A DNA stretch of 60,704 nt, filler included, from Porpidia crustulata (GCA_964255105.1; 9 parts of 9 records of this genome joined end to end with filler, not necessarily neighbours in it), one strand, 5' to 3'; positions 6,672 through 54,069 are shown, numbered from the whole stretch's first letter. Program-made: numbers and translations. The notes: a model not told the origin generated them from the letters alone.

Positions 6672-6771
6672 NNNNNNNNNNNNNNNNNNNNNNNNNNNNN
6701 NNNNNNNNNNNNNNNTTAATTAATTAANNNNNNNNNNNNNNNNNNNNNNNNNNNNNNNNNNNNNNNNNNNN
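6672..6771. other. Artificial contig linker N44-TTAATTAATTAA-N44
   Basis: 100-nt spacer with a palindromic stop-codon core, identical at eight places. Confidence 0.98.
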
Positions 6772-13442: not shown

Positions 13443-13542
13443 NNNNNNNNNNNNNNNNNNNNNNNNNNNNNNNNNNNNNNNNNNNNTTAATTAATTAANN
13501 NNNNNNNNNNNNNNNNNNNNNNNNNNNNNNNNNNNNNNNNNN
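13443..13542. other. Artificial contig linker
   Basis: N44-TTAATTAATTAA-N44. Confidence 0.98.
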
Positions 13543-40483: not shown

Positions 40484-40583
40484 NNNNNNNNNNNNNNNNN
40501 NNNNNNNNNNNNNNNNNNNNNNNNNNNTTAATTAATTAANNNNNNNNNNNNNNNNNNNNNNNNNNNNNNNNNNNNNNNNNNNN
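40484..40583. other. Artificial contig linker
   Basis: N44-TTAATTAATTAA-N44. Confidence 0.98.
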
Positions 40584-40587
40584 GTAC

Positions 40588-40629
40588 CTGGTCGAGGCAG
40601 TCTTGGAGTTGGGTGAGGATGTCGGCCAT
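40588..40629 (-). CDS. MED21: Mediator subunit Med21/Srb7, first exon only
   Basis: MADILTQLQDCLDQ followed by a GTAC donor at the contig edge; characteristic Med21 N-terminus. Confidence 0.8.
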
Positions 40630-41895
40630 GATTGGAGTTGGTTTTATTGGCTCGTATGCGGCTGGCTGTGCTGTCGAAATTGCGGTCAATGAGTCATTTG
40701 GTATCGTCAAGACCCAGGAGAGCTGTGCTGGATTTAGTGCGATGAGGTGCATTATCTCGGCTGGCGGAGTGGTTGAGGGCGCTAGCTTAGCCCCAGCCAC
40801 GTTAACATCCATTGTGATGATAGGTACCATAGCTTTCAACTACACGAGTACAGCTGTCAACGACCAATGTCAACAGGCTCGCGTGGCAGCTATCTACACA
40901 TCCATGCGAGGCATAAGGTAATTGGCCTTCCTGGCTAAAGCACAAATGACAAATGGCATGCAGCTGACTATCCTATGAGTGCGGCGTTGACATGTATTCG
41001 ACCCTCATCTGTCCTTGCTGACGGCCATCATGGATAACCCTCAAGCCTCCCATAAATTGCAGTGAGATGGAAGAAACGGCCAATCCAACCTGAGGGACAG
41101 CATGCGCCGGCTCAGCATCGGCCGGTGAGAGGGGCTTCTGGTGCGCTATTTTCCGGATGTGGTAAATGTCCTCCAGAAGGAAGGCCTGGTTTCGAGGCCG
41201 CCAATCATCGAATTTTGGTAACCATAACGTTATGCTACTATAGTACTGTGTACCACGAAATCTGCCATTTAAGTTCCAAAGATGTCAGCAACACCCGTAT
41301 ATCTATACCCAATGGCAATCCCTTGGGCCTCCGTGCATGGTATGTGCACTGCCCTAGTGCGCCCATCCTTCTGCCTTGTCCTCGGACACCACTGAGATCC
41401 TCTGTCGAAAACGGCAGCGATACAGATCAAGACTGCAGTGTTAGTACTAAAGATTTACGTACTATAATCAGGGTATTCCGGCTTCTCGGGATCAGTGTGT
41501 AAGATGTCACACGCAAAGCCACTCGAAATGACAGGGATAGGGGGCGCAAAGCCTCTGGTGCAACCTACTACTCGTCTCCAAGACTGATCTCGATTGTTCG
41601 CATTGTATGCCTTGGGAAGAGCCTATAGCATTCGGTGCGAGACAGCTGATTCTGATTGTCCTGTTTCTTTCAGTTCTTTTCTCTCATTTCTTCAAAAATC
41701 CGGACATTTCTCACAACGCTATTGAACTCTACGTGCCCACCTGAGCCTACGACCTACAGCTTCTGCCCAGCAATGATTGCAGACGCTACACTTTTATATC
41801 CGCCCCACTCCTCTTAAATCTGACAGACTCTTTAACTTGCTGCTTTATATGTGCTGCCTTTGTACTAGATATTGTTCTCTACTTTCTGCGGATCG

Positions 41896-44053
41896 ATGTC
41901 TACGATGAGCGACCCTGAGGGTTTTATCACGAAATCCGCACAATGGAAAAGGCCACATTTCCCACCATGGACCTCGCACATTAACGAGGATGGTAGCTGT
42001 GGTGATGGGTTCAACGTATATTTCGACGATGACCCGCCACTCCAATTCGACAGGTTTATAGGAGAGGGCAACAATGGGACAGTGAACGCGATGAAGTGCG
42101 AGAAAAACGAAGAACTGGTGGCAGTCAAGAGAATCCGGATTGACATGGTCAGAGATTCTATGGTTGCCCTGCAGAACGAGGTCCGGAGTCTTCAGCAGCT
42201 CTCGCACTATCACGTTCTAGACATAGTCGGAACGTACATACACGGAGACTATTTCTTTTTGATGACGCTTCCAGTAGCCCAATGCTCATTGTATAGCTAC
42301 TTAAGACACGCCACGAAATATCCGCCACACAAATTGATTGATCAATGCGGACGGCCTGATGAAATCCTTCCGACACTCTTTGGCTGCCTTGCGAATGGCT
42401 TGCGCTATATACATCGGGAAAAAATGAGGCACATGGACATTAAGCCTGATAATATCATCTTGATTAACGGGCGGTGTTTGTTTGCAGACTTCGGCATCGC
42501 GCGCAAGTTTGCAACTCGAAGTACCTCGGACACACCAGTGTCAAGGACGCACAAGGTAAGACCTGTTTCCAAAGCATTTGTAGACGTGGTGGTTTGCTTA
42601 TCAGGAAATAGTATGCCGCACCTGAAATTGCGCGAAACGATTATCACAACCGAGCTTCTGATATGTTTTCGCTTGGTTTGGTATTTGCCGAAGTATTTGC
42701 AGTATACAGAGGCTACTCTTACAGCGACTTCCGAGCATTCATTCCGGGCCACTACCACACATGTGTACCTAAGATACTCAAGAAACTCAGAGATATCGCC
42801 ACCGATAAGCGGTGTGACGTACAAATTTTGGTCCTCATAGAAGGCATGCTGGACGAGTCCAGATTCAATCGCCCGGATGCCGATACGGTTTGGAAGCGTG
42901 CAACAACCTGTACGAACTCTTCCACAAGCACTGGGAACGTATACTTTTGTGGACCCTGTTGCATGCCATACCTTTCCAGCGTAGGCCTTCGACAAATGCC
43001 TTTACAACTCGACTTTTCAAAACTGCCTTATCATGCGGACATTCCCCTCGTGAATCATCCCCCTTTTGGAAAAGACCCAAATTTTGAGGTATGGCATAGA
43101 CCAAACGAACCTCTTGGATTTGAATGGGTACGAAACCTACGTCACGCTTCGTACTCATTCCATGATGTTGTAAAATGTGCCTCTGAGCGAGCTCAGCTTG
43201 GGCGGAAGATAGTGCTGAGCCTGCCAAACCAGACAGTCGATGTGGCAACAGCAGCACGAAAAGAGGCAAAGTTGATGTGGCAGCTCACGCATCGCCACGT
43301 TATCAATTTGAAAGGAACATATAGGCAGGGGAACGTCTTTGGTTTGCTGTTTCACCCAGCTGCAGATTATGATCTGCGAACCTACCTCCAAGCGATCGAG
43401 TTACAGAACGCCAAAGTCTCAACACCCAACCTGAAGTTCTTAGCGGAGAGCTTCGGCTGCTTGGCCAGTGCATTAAACTACGTTCATGATAGCAGTGTTT
43501 TCCATGGAGATGTAAAGCCAGAAAACATCCTGGTCCATGCTGGACGAGTGTTCCTCGCCAAGTTTGGTCAAGCATCGAACTACAGATGTTTATCCGTCAC
43601 AGACACCATGGAAAGGAAGGAAGGGTCAGATCCCTCTGATCTGGTAAGCAACTCGGTCAAATGACGAATACTGGGACTGACTAGATCTTGACATAGTACC
43701 GATCACCAGAGTGGCGAACCGTTAAGGCAGCAGGAGAGCCAATGTCGGATGTCTTCTCCTTGGGCTGCACTTTTATCGAGATGTTTACTGTTCTCAAGGG
43801 TCGGAGAGTCCGCGATCTGACGTCCATTCTAAATGCTAATGGAATCACGCCCTATCGAGATAGCATCCTTGAGTTGGGTGAATGGATGAATAATCTACAC
43901 TCCGACGACGAAACGTATCTTAAAGATACTATTGACCAAATGATACACCAAGACCCAGATGGCAGACTCTCAATTGCACAGGTGTTTGAGAATCTAAAGA
44001 CCTGTGGCACTATTGGGACGCCGTCATTCTGCGGCTCTTTTTGTCGTGACTAA
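41896..44053 (+). CDS. Tandem Ser/Thr kinase-pseudokinase protein (~682 aa; exons 41896-42555, 42612-43643, 43697-44053)
   Basis: Domain 1: IGEGNNGTV, VAVK, NEV, HMDIKPDN, DFG, YAAPE, SDMFSLG. Domain 2: GRK, KEA, HGDVKPEN, KFG, YRSPE, SDVFSLG. Both GTAAG...AG introns restore the frame exactly. Confidence 0.88.
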
Positions 44054-44595
44054 TTTGACTGCCTGCCCTTCAGTTGAAAGATTGTATTCATATTGGGCCA
44101 GCAAATTCTTTTCTTAATTCCTGATCTGCCATCGTCACTTGCCGTGTCTCGTCTGATCAGGCCATGTCGAGAAAGATGGATATTCTCTCATGCATACGCT
44201 TTCGCGTCTTTTCGATGACACTGATGGCGATGGCTCTGATTTGGACAACATGCGTCTCAGTGGGCGACTATGTAGTACAGTGCGTGGAAATCCCACATAA
44301 GCAAAGAAACCTCGATCCCAAAAAGTTGCCCTTTTTGACCACGCGATCGCTCTCTGGTCGTACACCAAAAGATCCGATGAGTCAAGATTAAAGAAGCAAT
44401 TTCCAACACAAGCTCAGTCCAAGCGACTTTGCGCGTATAGAAAGTCTAGATGGTTCTTTCGATGTGCTTCTTTGCCGGGTTCCTCTCCTCATTGCCTTGG
44501 CTGTGCATTCGAGTTTGACTTGGATTAGATATCAGTCAACTTCGGCATGGGATCAAACCCTAGTGATAGATCGAGGTTAAAGTGATTTCAGCACA

Positions 44596-46576
44596 TCAGC
44601 AGCGAATTTTGTTCAAACTTTGGACCACGTTCTTTTGGAAAGCTTCCGACAGCGACAAAGCTTGCATTTCATCGTCAGTCGCTTCGCAACATACAGATTC
44701 CAGACTACCGTCTAAGCAAGCCTTGACGACGTTTTGGTAGCGAGTTCCAACTTTCGCCGCAAGTTGATCCATCGTCGACTTTGATAACAGGCTTTCCCTT
44801 GACCGTCTTGTCCTTGCTGATCGAGCCAGACTCAGATTCTCAATCATCAGTATCTCTTCTATACATTTCCAGTGTGCAATTTCAATAAGGATGACACCAA
44901 CGCTATAGATGTCATAGGACTTGCGGAAAGACACCCCAGGACTTTGACCGTGGGCATGGGGGTGGCGATAAACGTCAAATTCCGGATTATTGGGAGGTAA
45001 TTCAGTCATCTCGTCCCTATACGATGGACGGGAGAAGTCAAAGCCACAGAGATATGGTTTGCTGAGGTCAAACCCGTCATTTCGACTGGCATCTAGAAAA
45101 AAGACTACATTTGCGCTTCGAAGCGCTTTGTGCAACCAATTGACCGAGTGGAGACATGAGAGCGTATTGGCTAGTATATTTGCTACTTCGATGCGTTCTG
45201 TTAACGAAGGTTCATCTCCTTGACGGCAATTCCTGATGATTTGACGCAAGGAGGTTGGCTGGGACGATGGGATGGCGGCATCTGGATATTCGAAGACAAA
45301 TCCAATTCGAGATTCTTTGGCATTGTGATTAAGCTTATCGACACATACACTCTCATCAAGATAGCCTATACACCGAGGTACCCGAAAGCCGGCTGGCTTG
45401 TTGTCTTTATGGAGTAAGGCGGCCAATTTCTGCAAACGCTCCATGACCAAGGGCTCTGGACCCGATTGCCCTCGCGGAGGACTTTCGTAAAACTTCCATT
45501 CTACCCAGACATTTGTTCTGCTCTGCTCTGTTTGCCGATAGACTGCCCGGCAACGTGTCGCACGAAAATCTTCGTCCATTCTATTATCATTATCGATGAT
45601 TTCGACATCTGCTGGCTTCAGGCTCATCCTCTCTATTTGTGTGAGCGTTTTCCTCCGAGGGGTTTCCTGGCCATCATTGGGCAGCTCTTGCCGCTCTATC
45701 ATTGAAGTGTTAAAGGACTTGAAGGTGGCCAGTTCGGCCAATTGGTCCACCTGCTGAACGTGGACTATCCCCATCTCGCTCAACGCTTTGGGCAGCGTCT
45801 CAGCATTTCCCGTTTGCTTCTGTCCCAACTCGAGCTTTAAAGCTTTGACTAGTTGATCGAGATCATCAACTTTACTATACAATTGCAGTACTCCTCGGCT
45901 AGTCTCCAAGGTGGCCCGATGGATCTCCTTTTGCATGTTATTACCCACAATGCTGAGGATACCGTTGTTGATATTGGTCAAGTGTTCGAGCATGGACTGA
46001 AATTTTGACTTGTCCCAGGAAGCCCACACGAAATATTTAGGGATGTGCTGCACCTCACGCACACCCCGAAGTGCCTTCTTTAACAGGTCGTTCCGCCTCG
46101 GATACTTACTTATTCGCTCCTGCACAAATAGAGTTGCTCCTGAAAGCCCTGTATCTGGTTTTTCTTCGGATCTCGCTTCCACGTCTTCTTTATCATTTCC
46201 TATGTATCTCAAATGCCATTTCTCAAAATCCTTCACAAGAAGCTGGACCTGCATTAACTGATCGAGGATAAGGTGTCGAGTGGCACCTCCAAAAGTCTCT
46301 TCGAATGCCACTCCCTTCCACTGCCCTGAATCCAGCTCCAGCAACCCAGACGCTTCTCCCCAACTGAGCAGCCTCTGCTGTTCTAATTGTAGTCTAATGT
46401 TCAAATAGTGGCAGTCTCCTGGCATACCCGCCGCAGTGGTCAGGAACTGGATTCCTGGATAATAGCCGCAGGTTAGCCCTCTTTCATACTCTCGGCGTAG
46501 AGCGCAGACCTTGAATAGCTCCAGAATAGACCTGGAAGGCTAGCGAGGCTACTGCTAGTGAAGTATTCGAATCCAT
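44596..46576 (-). CDS. HeLo-domain plus kinase-like (pseudokinase) protein (~641 aa; exons 46576-46510, 46454-44596)
   Basis: N-terminus MDSNTSLAVASLAFQVYSGAIQG|IQFL...IRLQLEQQRLLSWGEASGL...WASWDKSKFQSMLEHLTNINNGI (HeLo signature); C-terminal VEWK, WLHKALRSANVVFF, PYLCGFDFSRP, YRHP, DIYSVGVILIEIAHW. Confidence 0.88.
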
Positions 46577-47232
46577 CGTCGTTCGCGATGAAGTGCTCAG
46601 CAGAGCTACCTGTCAACCAAACAAATACAAAGCCAAAAACGCAGCATTCAACCCATACGAAAACCCATAAAGAAGGAAATTTTGGCAGCGAGCCCTGCAA
46701 GAAAAAGCCCTCAGGACGAGGCGGAGAACTGGTGAAAAATCGAAGGACAATGACGACGCAAAAGCCGCGGGGCCGAACCGCATCCAGTCCACGGTAGCAC
46801 ACACTAGCGAGTTCTCCTCAACGCACACCCGACCATCCTGATAGGTCGATCAAGCATGTAAGAAGTAAGCCTCGCGCGCCTTGGGCGCATACAAGGCGGC
46901 CTATGGGCTTCTGCTCACCAAAATGCGAACCCGGCACTGTCTTATGAATGGACCGCGCTACACTCTTGTCTTCCGATTCTGTGCGATTCGTGGTATGACG
47001 CTGGAGAAGTTGCTGTTGCTGTCGCTGTCGCACATGGTCGCTCAAAGCGCTGTATCGCGCTGGCACTTTACGTTCGGGAAACGGGGAGAAAGAGATAAAA
47101 GAAACACTGTAAACATATGCCGCTTCACCCCTCTCCCGCTTTCCATACCACGTCCACTCTAAGAAAAACCAAAACAAATTCCCACTCCATCCCAACCTTC
47201 CGCTCTCTCCCCGCCCTCGCTCGATACTCATC

Positions 47233-47332
47233 NNNNNNNNNNNNNNNNNNNNNNNNNNNNNNNNNNNNNNNNNNNNTTAATTAATTAANNNNNNNNNNNN
47301 NNNNNNNNNNNNNNNNNNNNNNNNNNNNNNNN
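47233..47332. other. Artificial contig linker
   Basis: N44-TTAATTAATTAA-N44. Confidence 0.98.
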
Positions 47333-50300
47333 GTGGGAAGGGGCGTGGGGGAGGAGGAGAAGGGAGAAAAGACGGACTATCTATGAAGATGATTTATGTA
47401 CAATGTCGGGGGAAAGGGATGAAGTTTCAGATCTACAGATGAGAACTTGTTGATTTTGTAGAGGCGTGCAGATAGTCATTTAGCTATAGCAAACTTGGCG
47501 CAACACTTTGCTAGCCAAAGGCAGCTTAAATCACGTAGAACATCTTTATCAGACAAGAAAACATAGGCTCTCAAGCTACTCCATTATCATCGAGCCTTTA
47601 ACGTCGTGACCTATTCCTTTGAAGGAGAAGCCGCTCAAGCCGGTGCAATCTGGATGAGATCTACCTGTTGCAGATTCCGATTCGTGGGAGTCGGAACCGA
47701 CACTTTGGCTTTGAGGGGGAATGATCACTACTACTGTAGCGTGTTGCCTTGCAACGAAAGAGCCGAGCTTCCTCGTATAATATGTTTATGATTGATGTTT
47801 GGGTTATCAAAGGTGGATGCTATTGAGCCCAAGGTAGTATGGTAGATTCGGATTTGCGAGCGCTGAAGGTTGTTGTAGCTGTTAGATTTGTCTTTATTTC
47901 TTGCTACGGGCCTCACCTATACAGTGGGTTTCCTGATACCATTCGAGAAAATATTCTTATACCGTTGAAAGTATTCCAGATTTAGAGATCTGGTACTTTC
48001 GATCAGATCAATGATACAACCTGCTGCAGATGCTTCCCTCGAACTTCGATATCTTATTGCCGCTGTCCTTGATTATGCAGTTAAATCCTCTTGGATCGTG
48101 GCGGGTCTGCAGATCAAGATTGGATCGATATTCGGATCATTCGACTCATGATATATACACCTCCTTTGTTATTCAAGGAATCACAGGCTTGGACATTACC
48201 ATCTGCGGTCAATATTAACAGGCTTGACATTCAAGATCTTGTTCAACGGAGTTGGATTGACCCCAAGAATTTCGAATAGAGATTATGCGTCGCACTCACA
48301 GCAAAAGCTTCAACGGACGTCGAGTCGATTCCTTCCAGAAACCTATTTTGCGACGCATGATCGATCACAGACAGCATTTGAACGGTGAAGCGGTTTGCAA
48401 GCCGCTGATTCTTATTTCACTTTGATCACGGGCAAGCTAGAAATCTTCTGAGCGAGGGTATCCATATCCAGCTTTCTGATGGAGAGTATGCACACCTGTC
48501 TTCCAGCTCCACGGCCTCGCATGGTAGGTTTGATAGCTTATTGAATTACATTGCATGAAAATTCAACGCCGGTGTCGCTATTAAATACCCGTATACTTTG
48601 AGTAAGACCGCGTCAGCCATCTTGACTCGTTTCCTAGGGCCATCTTGTGAATCTGATGTGTCACAGCTCCCAGTATTGTAAAGGTGACGTGAACTTTGCC
48701 GTACTACTTGTTTCGACATTTATGAGACCGAGTCTCAGCCCTCGAACGTTTCAATGTGCTTCGATTATTAAAATTTGATGGATCATCGAAAAGAGCTTAG
48801 AAGACTGAATATACAACTGAATCCGCTTTAGAAAGAAGATACAATTGTCACGAATGATTTTGATAAATCAATCCTCTACGCTCACAACGGCTAGTATGTT
48901 CAATACTATGCTTTTGGCATTCTCAAGCTCTAGGCTAGCCCAAAGGCAACACAAAAGGGTCGAGCCCCAAGGCCACTAGAGCGGAACAAAAGCAACTCAT
49001 ACACAGACAGACCTCACAAGAAAGTCGAGACGGCAGAGACAAAAAGTGGTACGGTCGAGAAAGCAAAAGGTCATCAGTGGAAAATAGAACAGAAAGGGAA
49101 GGTTTGTACCGAAGGGTTTCCTTCCTGGAACCACGTAACTGACGCTCTCATTAGCTATAAATTAGCTAGTTAGCGAAGTATAAATCAATCAATCAATCAA
49201 TTAAGCTCTGGGTAAAGTTTTTATCATTTGACAGCCCAAACATGGAGATGTCCCAATCTAACAAATTGGTCATTGCGGCACATTTTCTTGCCTCTGGAGC
49301 GTGGACCACCACGTCAGACGTTTAGAGTCATTAGCTTTGACGAGAGATGATCTCATCACAGATTCAGGTCCTCGGTAGCAGCAGACAAGCAATTCGGCAA
49401 AGGTCTTATCTTTGGAACCGCAACAAACCTCCAGAAACCTGTTTTCTTGCTTTTGGCTTGTTCTAGTGATAATTATGGCATTTGGTAACACACAAAACTC
49501 GTGCTTTCTTACTTCATGTTTCACCCCTGGAATTGAAATTAACAGAACACCGTTAGTGTATGAGCACACGTGCACAATATTTGAAGTTGAGCTGATCTTT
49601 CATGCTGATATCTGAATTTTGCGAAATTCCCAAAGACCTCGATTTTGTTTTCGATGGAGATCATCGCGACATTATGTCTTTCTCGATGAAAGACTGATTA
49701 TCCTTAGTGCTCTGTACATTGTCTTGTCGAGTCACTATCTTAGTTTGATATCTCCATGGACAGCCAATCGAGGAAGTGTCTTGGCCGAAAACCAGACGAA
49801 GTATGGCTTGGACCCAGGCATAACTACCAGCCTAGGATTAAAGAGATTCTTTAGTGGATTATAGAACTGGTGCGAGTAAAAAAGGACAGTAGTAATAGAG
49901 ATTATACCCCGGGCGTGTCATATGACCCATGCAAAGACTTATCGGAAACGTGAATTTGCAGGTGGAGCATCAGGAAGCAATCGTACATTAAGCCGTACCT
50001 TTCGTTTCGTGAGTTAAAGGAAGAGATATATCGGAAAAGCGACTAGCATTTGACATATTAAATAGAAAGCTCTCGCATTGGCCGATTACGATCCATGCTC
50101 CTCGTATTAAATCTCGACATATTCAAGAGGGACAGTCGTATATCTTAATCCATTAATTGTGCCCTTGTAGTTTGCGACGGAATATCTCGAGCATTGCACA
50201 ACGAGTAGATTCCGGCCAAAAAAAAAGCCGGCATTGATAAGTGTAGACGCCGAGCCATTTTGAACTGAATTCTCTCTCTTTTCAATGTCTAAGAAGTTGC

Positions 50301-50874
50301 AGTGGTTGTTGACCTTAGTCTTCCGAAAGCGAGTGTCATGAGGTCAGAGACTCTTTATGTACGCACAAAAGTACGTGCACGTAGATAGGAACTTGAGAAC
50401 AGCACTGCCTCATTATGTAGCTGTAGACCATCCCTCAGACGATCGGGGTGGCGAATCATTCAGTTTGTAGTAAGGGCGCCGAGAGACTGTAAGACGAGCA
50501 AAAGATACTTCTCAACACTACTTTCAGGCCAGCCCCGTAGTGTACACATTGTGAAGAATGAGTACTCTAGAATAAGAGAGGTCTGGTAAATCGCGAGCAC
50601 AGGATTCGGGCCATTGGATTATTACTCAGTCTCATTCAAGTCGGGATTGCCAAGCAATCACCCGTCGTTTCGTAGGGCAAGTCTAAGCGATGTGTTGTGG
50701 CTTGATCGGTGGATGACGTGGGGCGATTCAGAGCTGGGGTTAAACTCCAAGTTTCTTCGCGACGTACTATTACGTGCCCTGCATTTTCAGCACTCTTCAC
50801 CCTCCGTTCAATTCTCAGATTTTCCCAATCTGATCTTGCATCGCTGAGGTCCGGAGTCCCTGTCAAGGGTCAAG

Positions 50875-51065
50875 GTGAGAATTTTCTAATCTGTCTTGAA
50901 GGTTTCAGTCTTTGTCTTATTGCGCGTCATGCAAGTGCCCTCTCTGAATTCCAATTCTAAATATCCTGTTCGTCTAGAACATCTGTTGCCTATTTTTCTA
51001 TTTAACAAGTTGCTCAATGCTTGTGTGCTTCAGCCAATTTGTGACTTTTACTAACTAATTCCCAG
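50875..51065 (+). other. Probable 5'-UTR intron of the ELO-family gene
   Basis: GTGAGA donor, perfect TACTAAC branch site at 51049-51055, CAG acceptor 40 nt upstream of CCACCATG. Confidence 0.5.
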
Positions 51066-53969: not shown

Positions 53970-54069
53970 NNNNNNNNNNNNNNNNNNNNNNNNNNNNNNN
54001 NNNNNNNNNNNNNTTAATTAATTAANNNNNNNNNNNNNNNNNNNNNNNNNNNNNNNNNNNNNNNNNNNN
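53970..54069. other. Artificial contig linker
   Basis: N44-TTAATTAATTAA-N44. Confidence 0.98.

Follow-up and report, generated by a model that had tools for sequence, protein, structure and literature searches.

In the 60,704 nucleotides of Porpidia crustulata DNA analysed here (GCA_964255105.1; the whole stretch, filler included, is called the window), two intact genes lie tail-to-tail: gene A, coding for a tandem kinase with one active-looking and one degenerate kinase domain, and gene B, coding for an N-terminal HeLo domain fused to a pseudokinase. A module made up of a sensor kinase and an MLKL-like executioner is likely to be real. The fuller reading, a two-gene sensor/executioner module in which B is the MLKL-like executioner and A its cognate regulator, is one to which we give roughly even credence. 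It is carried by the domain architectures of the two proteins, by the state of their kinase motifs and by the linkage of B-type genes to active-looking kinase genes, which recurs in phylogenetically dispersed loci. The two genes and the spacer between them are as follows.

41896..44053, + strand: gene A, tandem kinase of 683 residues; exons 41896–42555, 42612–43643 and 43697–44053 (splice model; Pfam Pkinase in each exon)
44596..46576, − strand: gene B, HeLo plus pseudokinase, 642 residues; exons 46576–46510 and 46454–44596 (splice model, Pfam)
44054..44595, no strand: spacer of 542 bp between the stop codons of the convergent 3′ ends (TAA of gene A at 44051–44053, TGA of gene B at 44596–44598)

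Both gene models were built on GT..AG introns and on the reading of open reading frames (ORFs). The two stop codons bear out the original prediction, made from the DNA alone, of two intact tail-to-tail genes at this distance; likewise, its description of gene A as an active-looking kinase fused to a degenerate one, and of gene B as a HeLo-pseudokinase, agrees with the Pfam matches and motif readings given below.

Gene B has an MLKL-like architecture, composed of a HET-S-type death domain, long helices, a true pseudokinase and, within a flexible loop, a hydroxyl residue that is conserved.

45853..46576, − strand: HeLo domain (PF14479), with a hydrophobic N-terminal helix in exon 1 and a helical bundle; long helices then extend to about 45690
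44599..45555, − strand: pseudokinase domain with a kinase fold (DUF7580; Pfam, AlphaFold2, Foldseek)
45493..45495, − strand: β3 Lys of the pseudokinase, K343, in the motif VEWK
45124..45132, − strand: HKA in place of HRD
45031..45039, − strand: DFS in place of DFG
45004..45006, − strand: Thr506 (T483 in exon-2 numbering), candidate phospho-acceptor in DEMTELP, at the activation-loop equivalent

Judged by its sequence, the HeLo domain is of the HET-S type and putatively membrane-attacking: exon 2 matches PF14479 with an E value of 1e-25 (91.2 bits for a cut-off of 23.2) over positions 21–204 of the 205 of the hidden Markov model (HMM), and the hydrophobic N-terminus of the protein reads MDSNTSLAVASLAFQVYSGAIQG. 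The profile of the gene B family (alignment A1) matches the HeLo domain of HET-S/s (2wvo_A, 2wvn_A and 2wvq_A, E 3.8e-6 to 1.2e-5, positions 3–190) and, over its C-terminal part, the kinases LIMK1 and ERK2. For the first 290 residues, the AlphaFold2 (AF2) model reaches a predicted local distance difference test (pLDDT) score of 77. When aligned with VIA-align, this N-terminal model and HET-S (2wvo_A) correspond over 184 residues, the longest coverage listed, with a root-mean-square deviation of 4.6 and a Z score of 9.1, values below about 13 being common for helical models; the alignment with the four-helix bundle of MLKL (4btf_A, 89 residues) gives a Z score of 7.1, in the noise range for helical bundles. 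Foldseek returned no match for the N-terminal model at E≤0.001.

The C-terminal half carries a kinase fold that has lost its catalytic residues. Exon 2 matches DUF7580 (PF24476; E 2.3e-7, 31.2 bits for a cut-off of 27), Pkinase itself matches weakly (E 0.05), and the AF2 model of the exon is confident across residues 300–618. The kinase-fold part retrieved BRAF, MET and MerTK as the top Foldseek matches (E about 1e-7), with a RIPK3 chain (7mon_A) at rank 23 and no MLKL chain among the matches listed. The loss of the catalytic Asp is general in the family: among 236 members this column holds Gly in 200, Ala in 19 and Ser in 13, and Asp is not one of the four commonest residues, which together account for 234 of the 236. 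The β3 Lys, for its part, is kept in 207 of them. Eleven residues past the DF[SA] motif, at the position of Thr506, a hydroxyl residue is found in 234 of the 236 sequences (Thr in 216, Ser in 18), and this Thr falls within residues 475–485, the sole long loop modelled with low confidence in the kinase fold (pLDDT below 50). Thr506 is accordingly taken as a candidate phosphorylation site. The chain ends a few residues past the kinase fold, so that on reading the sequence no C-terminal prion-forming region is present.

The family to which gene B belongs is large: 164 homologues were collected among near-length candidates, almost all with both PF14479 and PF24476, and an exhaustive HMMER scan gave 404 clusters (50% identity) at E≤1e-30 and 2603 at E≤1e-10. 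Gene B is 33–69% identical, with full-length coverage, to proteins that carry these two domains, which are annotated either as "prion-inhibition and propagation domain-containing protein" or as "protein kinase domain-containing protein".

Gene A codes for two separate kinase domains, K1 and K2, each interrupted by an intron and followed by a Cys motif.

42046..42890 (ends approximate; intron 42556–42611), + strand: K1, active-looking kinase domain (Pfam, motifs)
42061..42078, + strand: K1 glycine loop, GEGNNG
42118..42129, + strand: K1 VAVK (K78)
42430..42453, + strand: K1 catalytic loop, HMDIKPDN
42487..42495, + strand: K1 DFG
42618..42626, + strand: K1 APE
42945..42968, + strand: linker Cys motif FCGPCCMP, following K1 (context TC.T...FCGPCCMP), conserved in 17 tandem-kinase relatives
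43126..43996 (ends approximate; intron 43644–43696), + strand: K2, degenerate kinase domain (Pfam, motifs)
43200..43214, + strand: K2 GRKIV
43503..43526, + strand: K2 HGDVKPEN
43560..43568, + strand: K2 KFG in place of DFG
43703..43714, + strand: K2 SPEW
44027..44044, + strand: second Cys motif, FCGSFC, after K2 at the C-terminus (context TC.T...FCGSFC), with C/G/C columns invariant in 5 sequences

All three exons match Pkinase (E 5.5e-24 for the first, 2.5e-24 with two stretches for the second, 1.3e-6 for the third). With its G-loop, VAVK, HMD..N, DFG and APE, K1 looks catalytically competent by its motifs, and with HMD for HRD it is a non-RD kinase. K2 retains a β3-like Lys, the αC Glu and HGD; its glycine loop is missing and its DFG is replaced by KFG, the Lys of which is at least 90% conserved in the tandem-kinase alignment (A3). 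The two domains are paralogous, K2 scoring 68.6 bits against the N-terminal part of K1. Gene A thus has the domain make-up of the sensor-type tandem kinase proteins of cereals, one active-looking and one degenerate kinase fold in a single chain. Across the 17 tandem-kinase relatives, each of the linker-motif positions F, C, P, C, C, M and P is either invariant or conserved to 90% or more, and the Cys clusters after K1 and K2 could be zinc knuckles or lipidation sites. Only a small number of full-length relatives of gene A came to light, patchily distributed, at 24–28% identity: proteins of Alternaria and Patellaria, and several others. The Alternaria and Patellaria proteins P0121 and P0125 carry the FCGPCCMP motif. 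The intron positions of gene A are identical in four relatives (L001, L033, L041 and L066, where L numbers denote loci found with gene B).

The pairing of A and B is kept in close relatives. Five relatives of gene B (62–69% identity) each have a counterpart among the relatives of gene A (63–70% identity). One pair, P0005 and P0145, is seen directly in L001–L003, tail-to-tail with a spacer of 411 bp. The four others are found on contigs of equal size, 6781 for P0002/P0143, 14387 for P0003/P0147, 8072 for P0004/P0146 and 18068 for P0006/P0148, and each of these pairs probably shares one contig.

The same arrangement is found in a distant clade. In L033, L037, L039 and L041 a tandem kinase lies tail-to-tail with a B gene across a spacer of 381–410 bp; it has the same intron positions as gene A and the same FCGPCCMP motif. 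These genes are only 34–35% (B) and 34–36% (A) identical to those of the window, and their flanks are different (CorA-like, RNase H). A tree of 62 rows of the B family was built with FastTree; several of its branches are long and its deep nodes unsure. In it this B clade is not sister to that of the window (Shimodaira–Hasegawa-like support 95–99); the sister of the window clade (support 95) is a large clade with short branches, made up of named Sordariomycetes and Leotiomycetes and referred to below as the orthologue clade. Tail-to-tail linkage therefore recurs in two non-sister B clades, while the original prediction had named a lack of recurrent linkage among the findings that would tell against it. 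Within the distant clade, L033 and L041 are 90% identical in B (dN/dS 0.27) and 73% identical in exon 1 of A (dN/dS 0.71), a single rough pairwise estimate with ORF ranges picked by eye, and as such weak. In another locus (L066:1700–9955) about 6–8 kb of AT-rich DNA (GC 14–28%) separates a tandem kinase 42% identical to gene A from its B gene, and this stretch looks like a degraded insertion splitting a former pair.

The original prediction also suggested testing whether its kinase family is enriched beside homologues with HeLo and kinase-like domains, and the survey of the family gave an enrichment of kinases. Metagenome contigs were scanned with the B alignment, yielding 80 loci in 51 groups at 90% nucleotide identity. 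Two groups were split and ten with a B match shorter than 480 residues were dropped from the tree and the counts (L042, L043, L047, L052, L054, L055/L062, L069, L070, L071 and L075), leaving 44 usable rows; no kinase match was found around the ten dropped partial-B groups, of which L052 alone has long flanks. Outside the orthologue clade, a non-housekeeping, active-looking kinase lies within 5 kb of B in 16 of 27 loci, or 17 of 27 with L019, which is counted as weak since all that Pfam detects is a kinase C-lobe (E 6.6e-7) beside ankyrin and a purpose-built kinase HMM gave no confirmation. In the orthologue clade there is none in 17 loci (Fisher test for 17/27 versus 0/17, p 1.5e-5; 3.1e-5 after merging near-identical loci). 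The kinases are moreover concentrated near B: within the 27 loci, 16 of them fall in the 207.7 kb lying at most 5 kb from B; the 149.9 kb farther out contain one. Four of the remaining kinase-less loci among the 27 have flanks shorter than 1.5 kb on either side. The linkage of kinase and B is in this way well supported beyond a single genome.

The neighbouring kinases are of four kinds: tandem kinases (three: L001, L033 and L039/41), kinases with TPR_10/12 tetratricopeptide repeats (TPR; two: L045 and L048), kinases with ankyrin repeats (five: L021, L032, L057, L061 and L079; six with L019) and kinases with no other Pfam domain (six: L044, L058, L064/67, L068, L072 and L076/77). They retain H[RKNM]DIKPxN and DFG. 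Against K1, the TPR and ankyrin types and L077 score 58–71 bits and housekeeping kinases 26–40 bits; by bit score, the TPR and ankyrin types are as close to K1 as K2 is. Orientation and spacing relative to B vary across loci, head-to-head, same-strand and tail-to-tail arrangements all being present. Among the 14 neighbour kinases with a captured catalytic loop, window K1 included, nine are non-RD, with HMD, HKD or HND for HRD; besides window K1 (42430–42453), these are in L001, L021, L044, L045, L048, L058, L064 and L079. In plants and animals, the non-RD trait has been associated with receptor kinases of innate immunity. The neighbours that recur in the orthologue clade are not kinases: a Zn2Cys6 factor gene adjoins B in L004, L007, L010, L014, L020, L022 and L036, often with a carboxylesterase, mitoribosomal S5 or CTK3 nearby, and the only kinase found close to B in this clade is the SNF1 orthologue of L016.

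Several B loci have surroundings of an immune type. An NLR (NOD-like receptor) gene with SesA and TPR lies directly tail-to-tail with B in L032 (8814–11925). In L058 (3632–5221 and 12201–16129) a patatin gene stands between the kinase and B, and an NLR with an NPHP3_N/NACHT-type domain and ankyrin repeats lies downstream; a patatin-like phospholipase gene is also found near B in L072 (3701–4621). In the kinase-TPR neighbour, 126-bp units that are 81–89% mutually identical make up the TPR_10 array (L045:4805–5294, L048:6960–7445), and the arrays of L045 and L048 differ by one unit (ORFs of 958 and 917 residues). This difference resembles the repeat-unit variation described for fungal NLR repeats. 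Taken together, the NLR, patatin and repeat-variation context fits an immune or death role.

On these grounds we propose the following mechanism. At rest, the pseudokinase of B would hold the membrane-attacking HeLo domain in check. K2 of gene A would most likely serve as a sensing, decoy or docking module, its place being taken by TPR or ankyrin repeats in the other kinases that neighbour B. A trigger acting on K2 would free or activate K1, which would then physically engage the B pseudokinase and phosphorylate its activation loop, with Thr506 as the candidate acceptor. Control would thus run from A to B in the activating direction: the HeLo domain, once released, would oligomerise and permeabilise membranes, and the outcome would be cell death. 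By extension, filamentous ascomycetes might possess widespread NLR-independent modules in which a sensor kinase, consisting of an active kinase with TPR, ankyrin or a decoy pseudokinase, directly controls an adjacent HeLo-pseudokinase executioner; this generalisation seems possible, and we hold it a little short of even.

A number of observations weigh against the proposed module. B genes of the orthologue clade, in 17 loci, have the same architecture and the same Thr without an adjacent kinase; because both are kept there, members of the family do not require the linkage, and the Thr may have a structural role. A comparison of the B and kinase trees, recommended by the original prediction, did not favour it: the Mantel correlation between B and the neighbour kinases is 0.68 over 15 pairs and vanishes once three close pairs are collapsed (r −0.03, p 0.55, 12 pairs), so that no deep co-phylogeny is seen. 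In L049, which is 95% identical in nucleotides to L048, B is intact and the kinase-TPR gene is missing: collinearity of the two loci (L048:6847–9597, L049:1–9313) begins only some 650 bp upstream of B, and sequence of about 31% GC replaces the L048 kinase gene. Here, beside an intact B, the kinase partner shows a presence/absence polymorphism. In a minority of loci the kinase is separated from B by another gene, PfkB in L077 and patatin in L058. The exclusion of housekeeping kinases (L013, L016, L029 and L056) was made after inspection, the counts for all kinases being 19/27 and 1/17, and all the loci come from metagenomic contigs, related ones among them being non-independent. As to K1, its sequence is not that of a RIPK/TKL kinase: the nearest sequences of solved structure are SPAK/OSR1 of the STE20 group (E 2.4e-15) and CDKs (E about 1e-15), and no RIPK is present among the best 60 of its 497 matches. 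Finally, the window pair sits among housekeeping genes, with a neighbour on the MED21 side that is common to its relatives. The gene in question is the following.

40584..40839, − strand: start of a MED21-like gene, divergent from gene A (context only); the ORF reads ...IMADILTQLQDCLDQV and is cut by a masked run of N at 40540–40583

It starts about 1.26 kb upstream of gene A, in agreement with the original prediction, which had named MED21 as a neighbour, and we take it to be MED21 from its motif, with no Pfam match. A short homologous segment of the MED21 side is also found upstream of A in L001–L003, and in relatives at 62–64% identity the A/B pair lies in conserved local synteny with the MED21-like gene. 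Because this segment is common to L001–L003, inherited synteny alone could suffice to explain the linkage within the window clade, and the idea that the pair moved as a unit was rejected for this clade. The window is otherwise an ordinary fungal one with spliced genes, the neighbours being myosin I, cytochrome c1, DAHP synthase, a Cu-ATPase, CSN7 and ELO. A segment of some 4.2 kb upstream of B (46818–51054) holds no stop-free frame of at least 110 residues on either strand and gives no Pfam match; it may be intron-rich, non-coding or degraded. Paired 44-base runs of N recur every 6.76 kb or so in the window (6672–6771, 13443–13542, ... 53970–54069) and reflect masking, not biology; one such pair (40484–40583) interrupts the MED21-like gene.

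Four other explanations were considered. In the first, the two genes are coupled by the opposite, guard-type logic: the kinase keeps B off, by binding it or by an inhibitory phosphorylation, and B is released when the kinase is lost or inhibited, for instance through a pathogen effector; or the B pseudokinase is a decoy that keeps watch for effectors aimed at kinases. The linkage evidence is equally compatible with this logic, since it leaves the direction of control unfixed, and a constitutively competent non-RD K1, with its HMD, would suit a tonic inhibitor no less than an activator. Moreover, according to the accessible part of its description, the plant MLKL protein R3AK becomes auto-active when its kinase active site is perturbed (10.64898/2026.08.07.743466). 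If the kinase were an obligatory antidote, however, an intact B without its kinase-TPR partner, as in L049, would be hazardous, and so would the 17 partner-less loci of the orthologue clade. The TPR, ankyrin and pseudokinase modules of the partners would also suit an activating receptor better, by analogy with fungal NLRs and gasdermin proteases as presented in the portion of PMC12881547 available. We regard guard or inhibitor logic as unlikely.

The adjacency could, secondly, be functionless, a MED21-A-B synteny inherited in one lineage, with the kinases of the other loci merely co-residing with B in fast-evolving islands of immune genes. The shared MED21-side segment of L001–L003 and the housekeeping surroundings of the window pair agree with the first half of this explanation, and the NLR, patatin and ankyrin genes near B elsewhere with the second; the loss of the Mantel correlation on collapsing close pairs and the unrelated syntenic neighbours of the orthologue clade point the same way. 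Such an explanation has nevertheless to accommodate the same rare tandem kinase, in the same orientation and at a distance of about 0.4 kb, next to B in a non-sister clade with different flanks. It would also have to account for the concentration of kinases within 5 kb of B and for a window pair that is kept together outside any island. We consider it rather improbable. The original prediction had in this respect held that conserved orthologues with unrelated neighbours would speak against it: this description is true of the Sordariomycete/Leotiomycete B clade and not of the fast-evolving, partner-linked clades.

Thirdly, the pair might be an allorecognition system, in which polymorphic kinase/HeLo-pseudokinase alleles kill upon fusion of unlike strains with no sensing of pathogens. 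Known het loci include ones based on HeLo proteins and on linked pairs of genes, as stated in the accessible part of PMC12881547. In addition, the kinase-TPR gene varies in presence and in repeat number among near-identical haplotypes (L045, L048 and L049), and exon 1 of A seems to evolve faster than B between L033 and L041, by the one rough estimate given above. The close relatives (62–70% identity) all retain both genes intact, however, and allorecognition is compatible with the sensor/executioner reading without excluding it; as a separate explanation we find it improbable to a marked degree. Lastly, that B is a non-lethal scaffold or membrane-associated regulator and A an ordinary kinase of the same pathway is very improbable, since the HeLo domain matches that of HET-S, a pore-forming death domain, and the partner kinases carry immune-receptor-like repeats, even though B in the orthologue clade is slow-evolving, looks single-copy and is in this sense housekeeping-like.

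The sensor/executioner module that we favour can be compared with several known systems. With RIPK3 and MLKL it shares, in B, a helical membrane-attacking domain joined to an Asp-less pseudokinase with a Ser/Thr in a flexible loop and, in A, a separate active kinase as the proposed switch. It differs in that the two genes are physically linked, that A is a tandem kinase nearer to STE20 and CDK than to RIPK/TKL, and that the N-terminus of B is a HET-S-type HeLo domain, its match to the MLKL bundle being in the noise range. The original prediction had called the module RIPK3/MLKL-like: because the nearest solved relatives of K1 are STE20 and CDK kinases, the likeness holds for the logic and not for homology on the kinase side. 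The pair would be a close functional analogue of RIPK3/MLKL.

Among fungal systems, nwd2/het-S, PNT1/HELLP and FNT1/HELLF are likewise two-gene clusters of a sensor and a HeLo-family executioner, often with TPR or ankyrin repeats in the partner, and are patchy and fast-evolving. Unlike these executioners, B lacks a prion-forming tail, and the signal proposed here is enzymatic, passed by a kinase, instead of amyloid templating. No NACHT or NB-ARC domain was found by Pfam in gene A or in the kinase-TPR and kinase-ankyrin neighbours; B has no tail past the kinase fold in which an amyloid motif could lie, no dedicated search for amyloid motifs having been made. In het-Q1/het-Q2 a pore-forming executioner, a gasdermin, is also encoded beside its activating enzyme, a protease; here a kinase stands in for the protease and a HeLo-pseudokinase for the gasdermin.

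In plants, digenic modules pair the Sr62 tandem kinase with an NLR (10.1101/2024.08.30.610287) and R3NLR with the MLKL protein R3AK (10.64898/2026.08.07.743466). As far as the available parts of these two reports go, they resemble the module in having, respectively, a tandem kinase with sensing and signalling domains and a paired death executor of the MLKL type. They differ in that the plant partners are NLRs, whereas here the tandem kinase is paired directly with the MLKL-like protein. Fungal death pathways are often encoded by two- or three-gene clusters, and the accessible portion of that literature names no kinase partner; none is described either in the available text of Wojciechowski et al. 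(PMC9815663) or in that of the Sordariales NLR survey (PMC12258605). A search of full-text literature, outside which fall subscription journals and supplements, found no description of kinase genes adjoining fungal HeLo-pseudokinase genes, nor of an MLKL-like protein paired, without an NLR, directly with a tandem kinase or a kinase that bears repeats. DUF7580/PF24476 is not mentioned in the literature searched, and no function is attached to the family there. It is plausible that the pair extends the known two-gene death clusters of fungi with a kinase partner.

The B family appears to comprise two kinds of gene, a slow, partner-less orthologue clade and fast-evolving, partner-linked clades. 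Such a split would be expected had a housekeeping-like ancestor been drawn into modules for immunity or allorecognition, or had the opposite happened. Fusions of HeLo with a (pseudo)kinase have so far received no more than passing mention, being called "reminiscent of MLKL", and no upstream kinase is known to have been named. The known fungal death switches are the NLR-to-HeLo templating of amyloids and the proteolysis of gasdermin by a linked protease. The linked kinase partner described here is a concrete and testable candidate for a third switch, operating by phosphorylation. If the module is what we propose, the kinase-to-MLKL logic would exist outside animals as a linked two-gene cassette, by ancient origin or by convergence, and the fungal tandem kinase would be a counterpart of the tandem-kinase immune receptors of plants. 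It would thereby tie together the RIPK3/MLKL necroptosis of animals, the tandem-kinase/MLKL immune pairs of plants and the two-gene death clusters of fungi.

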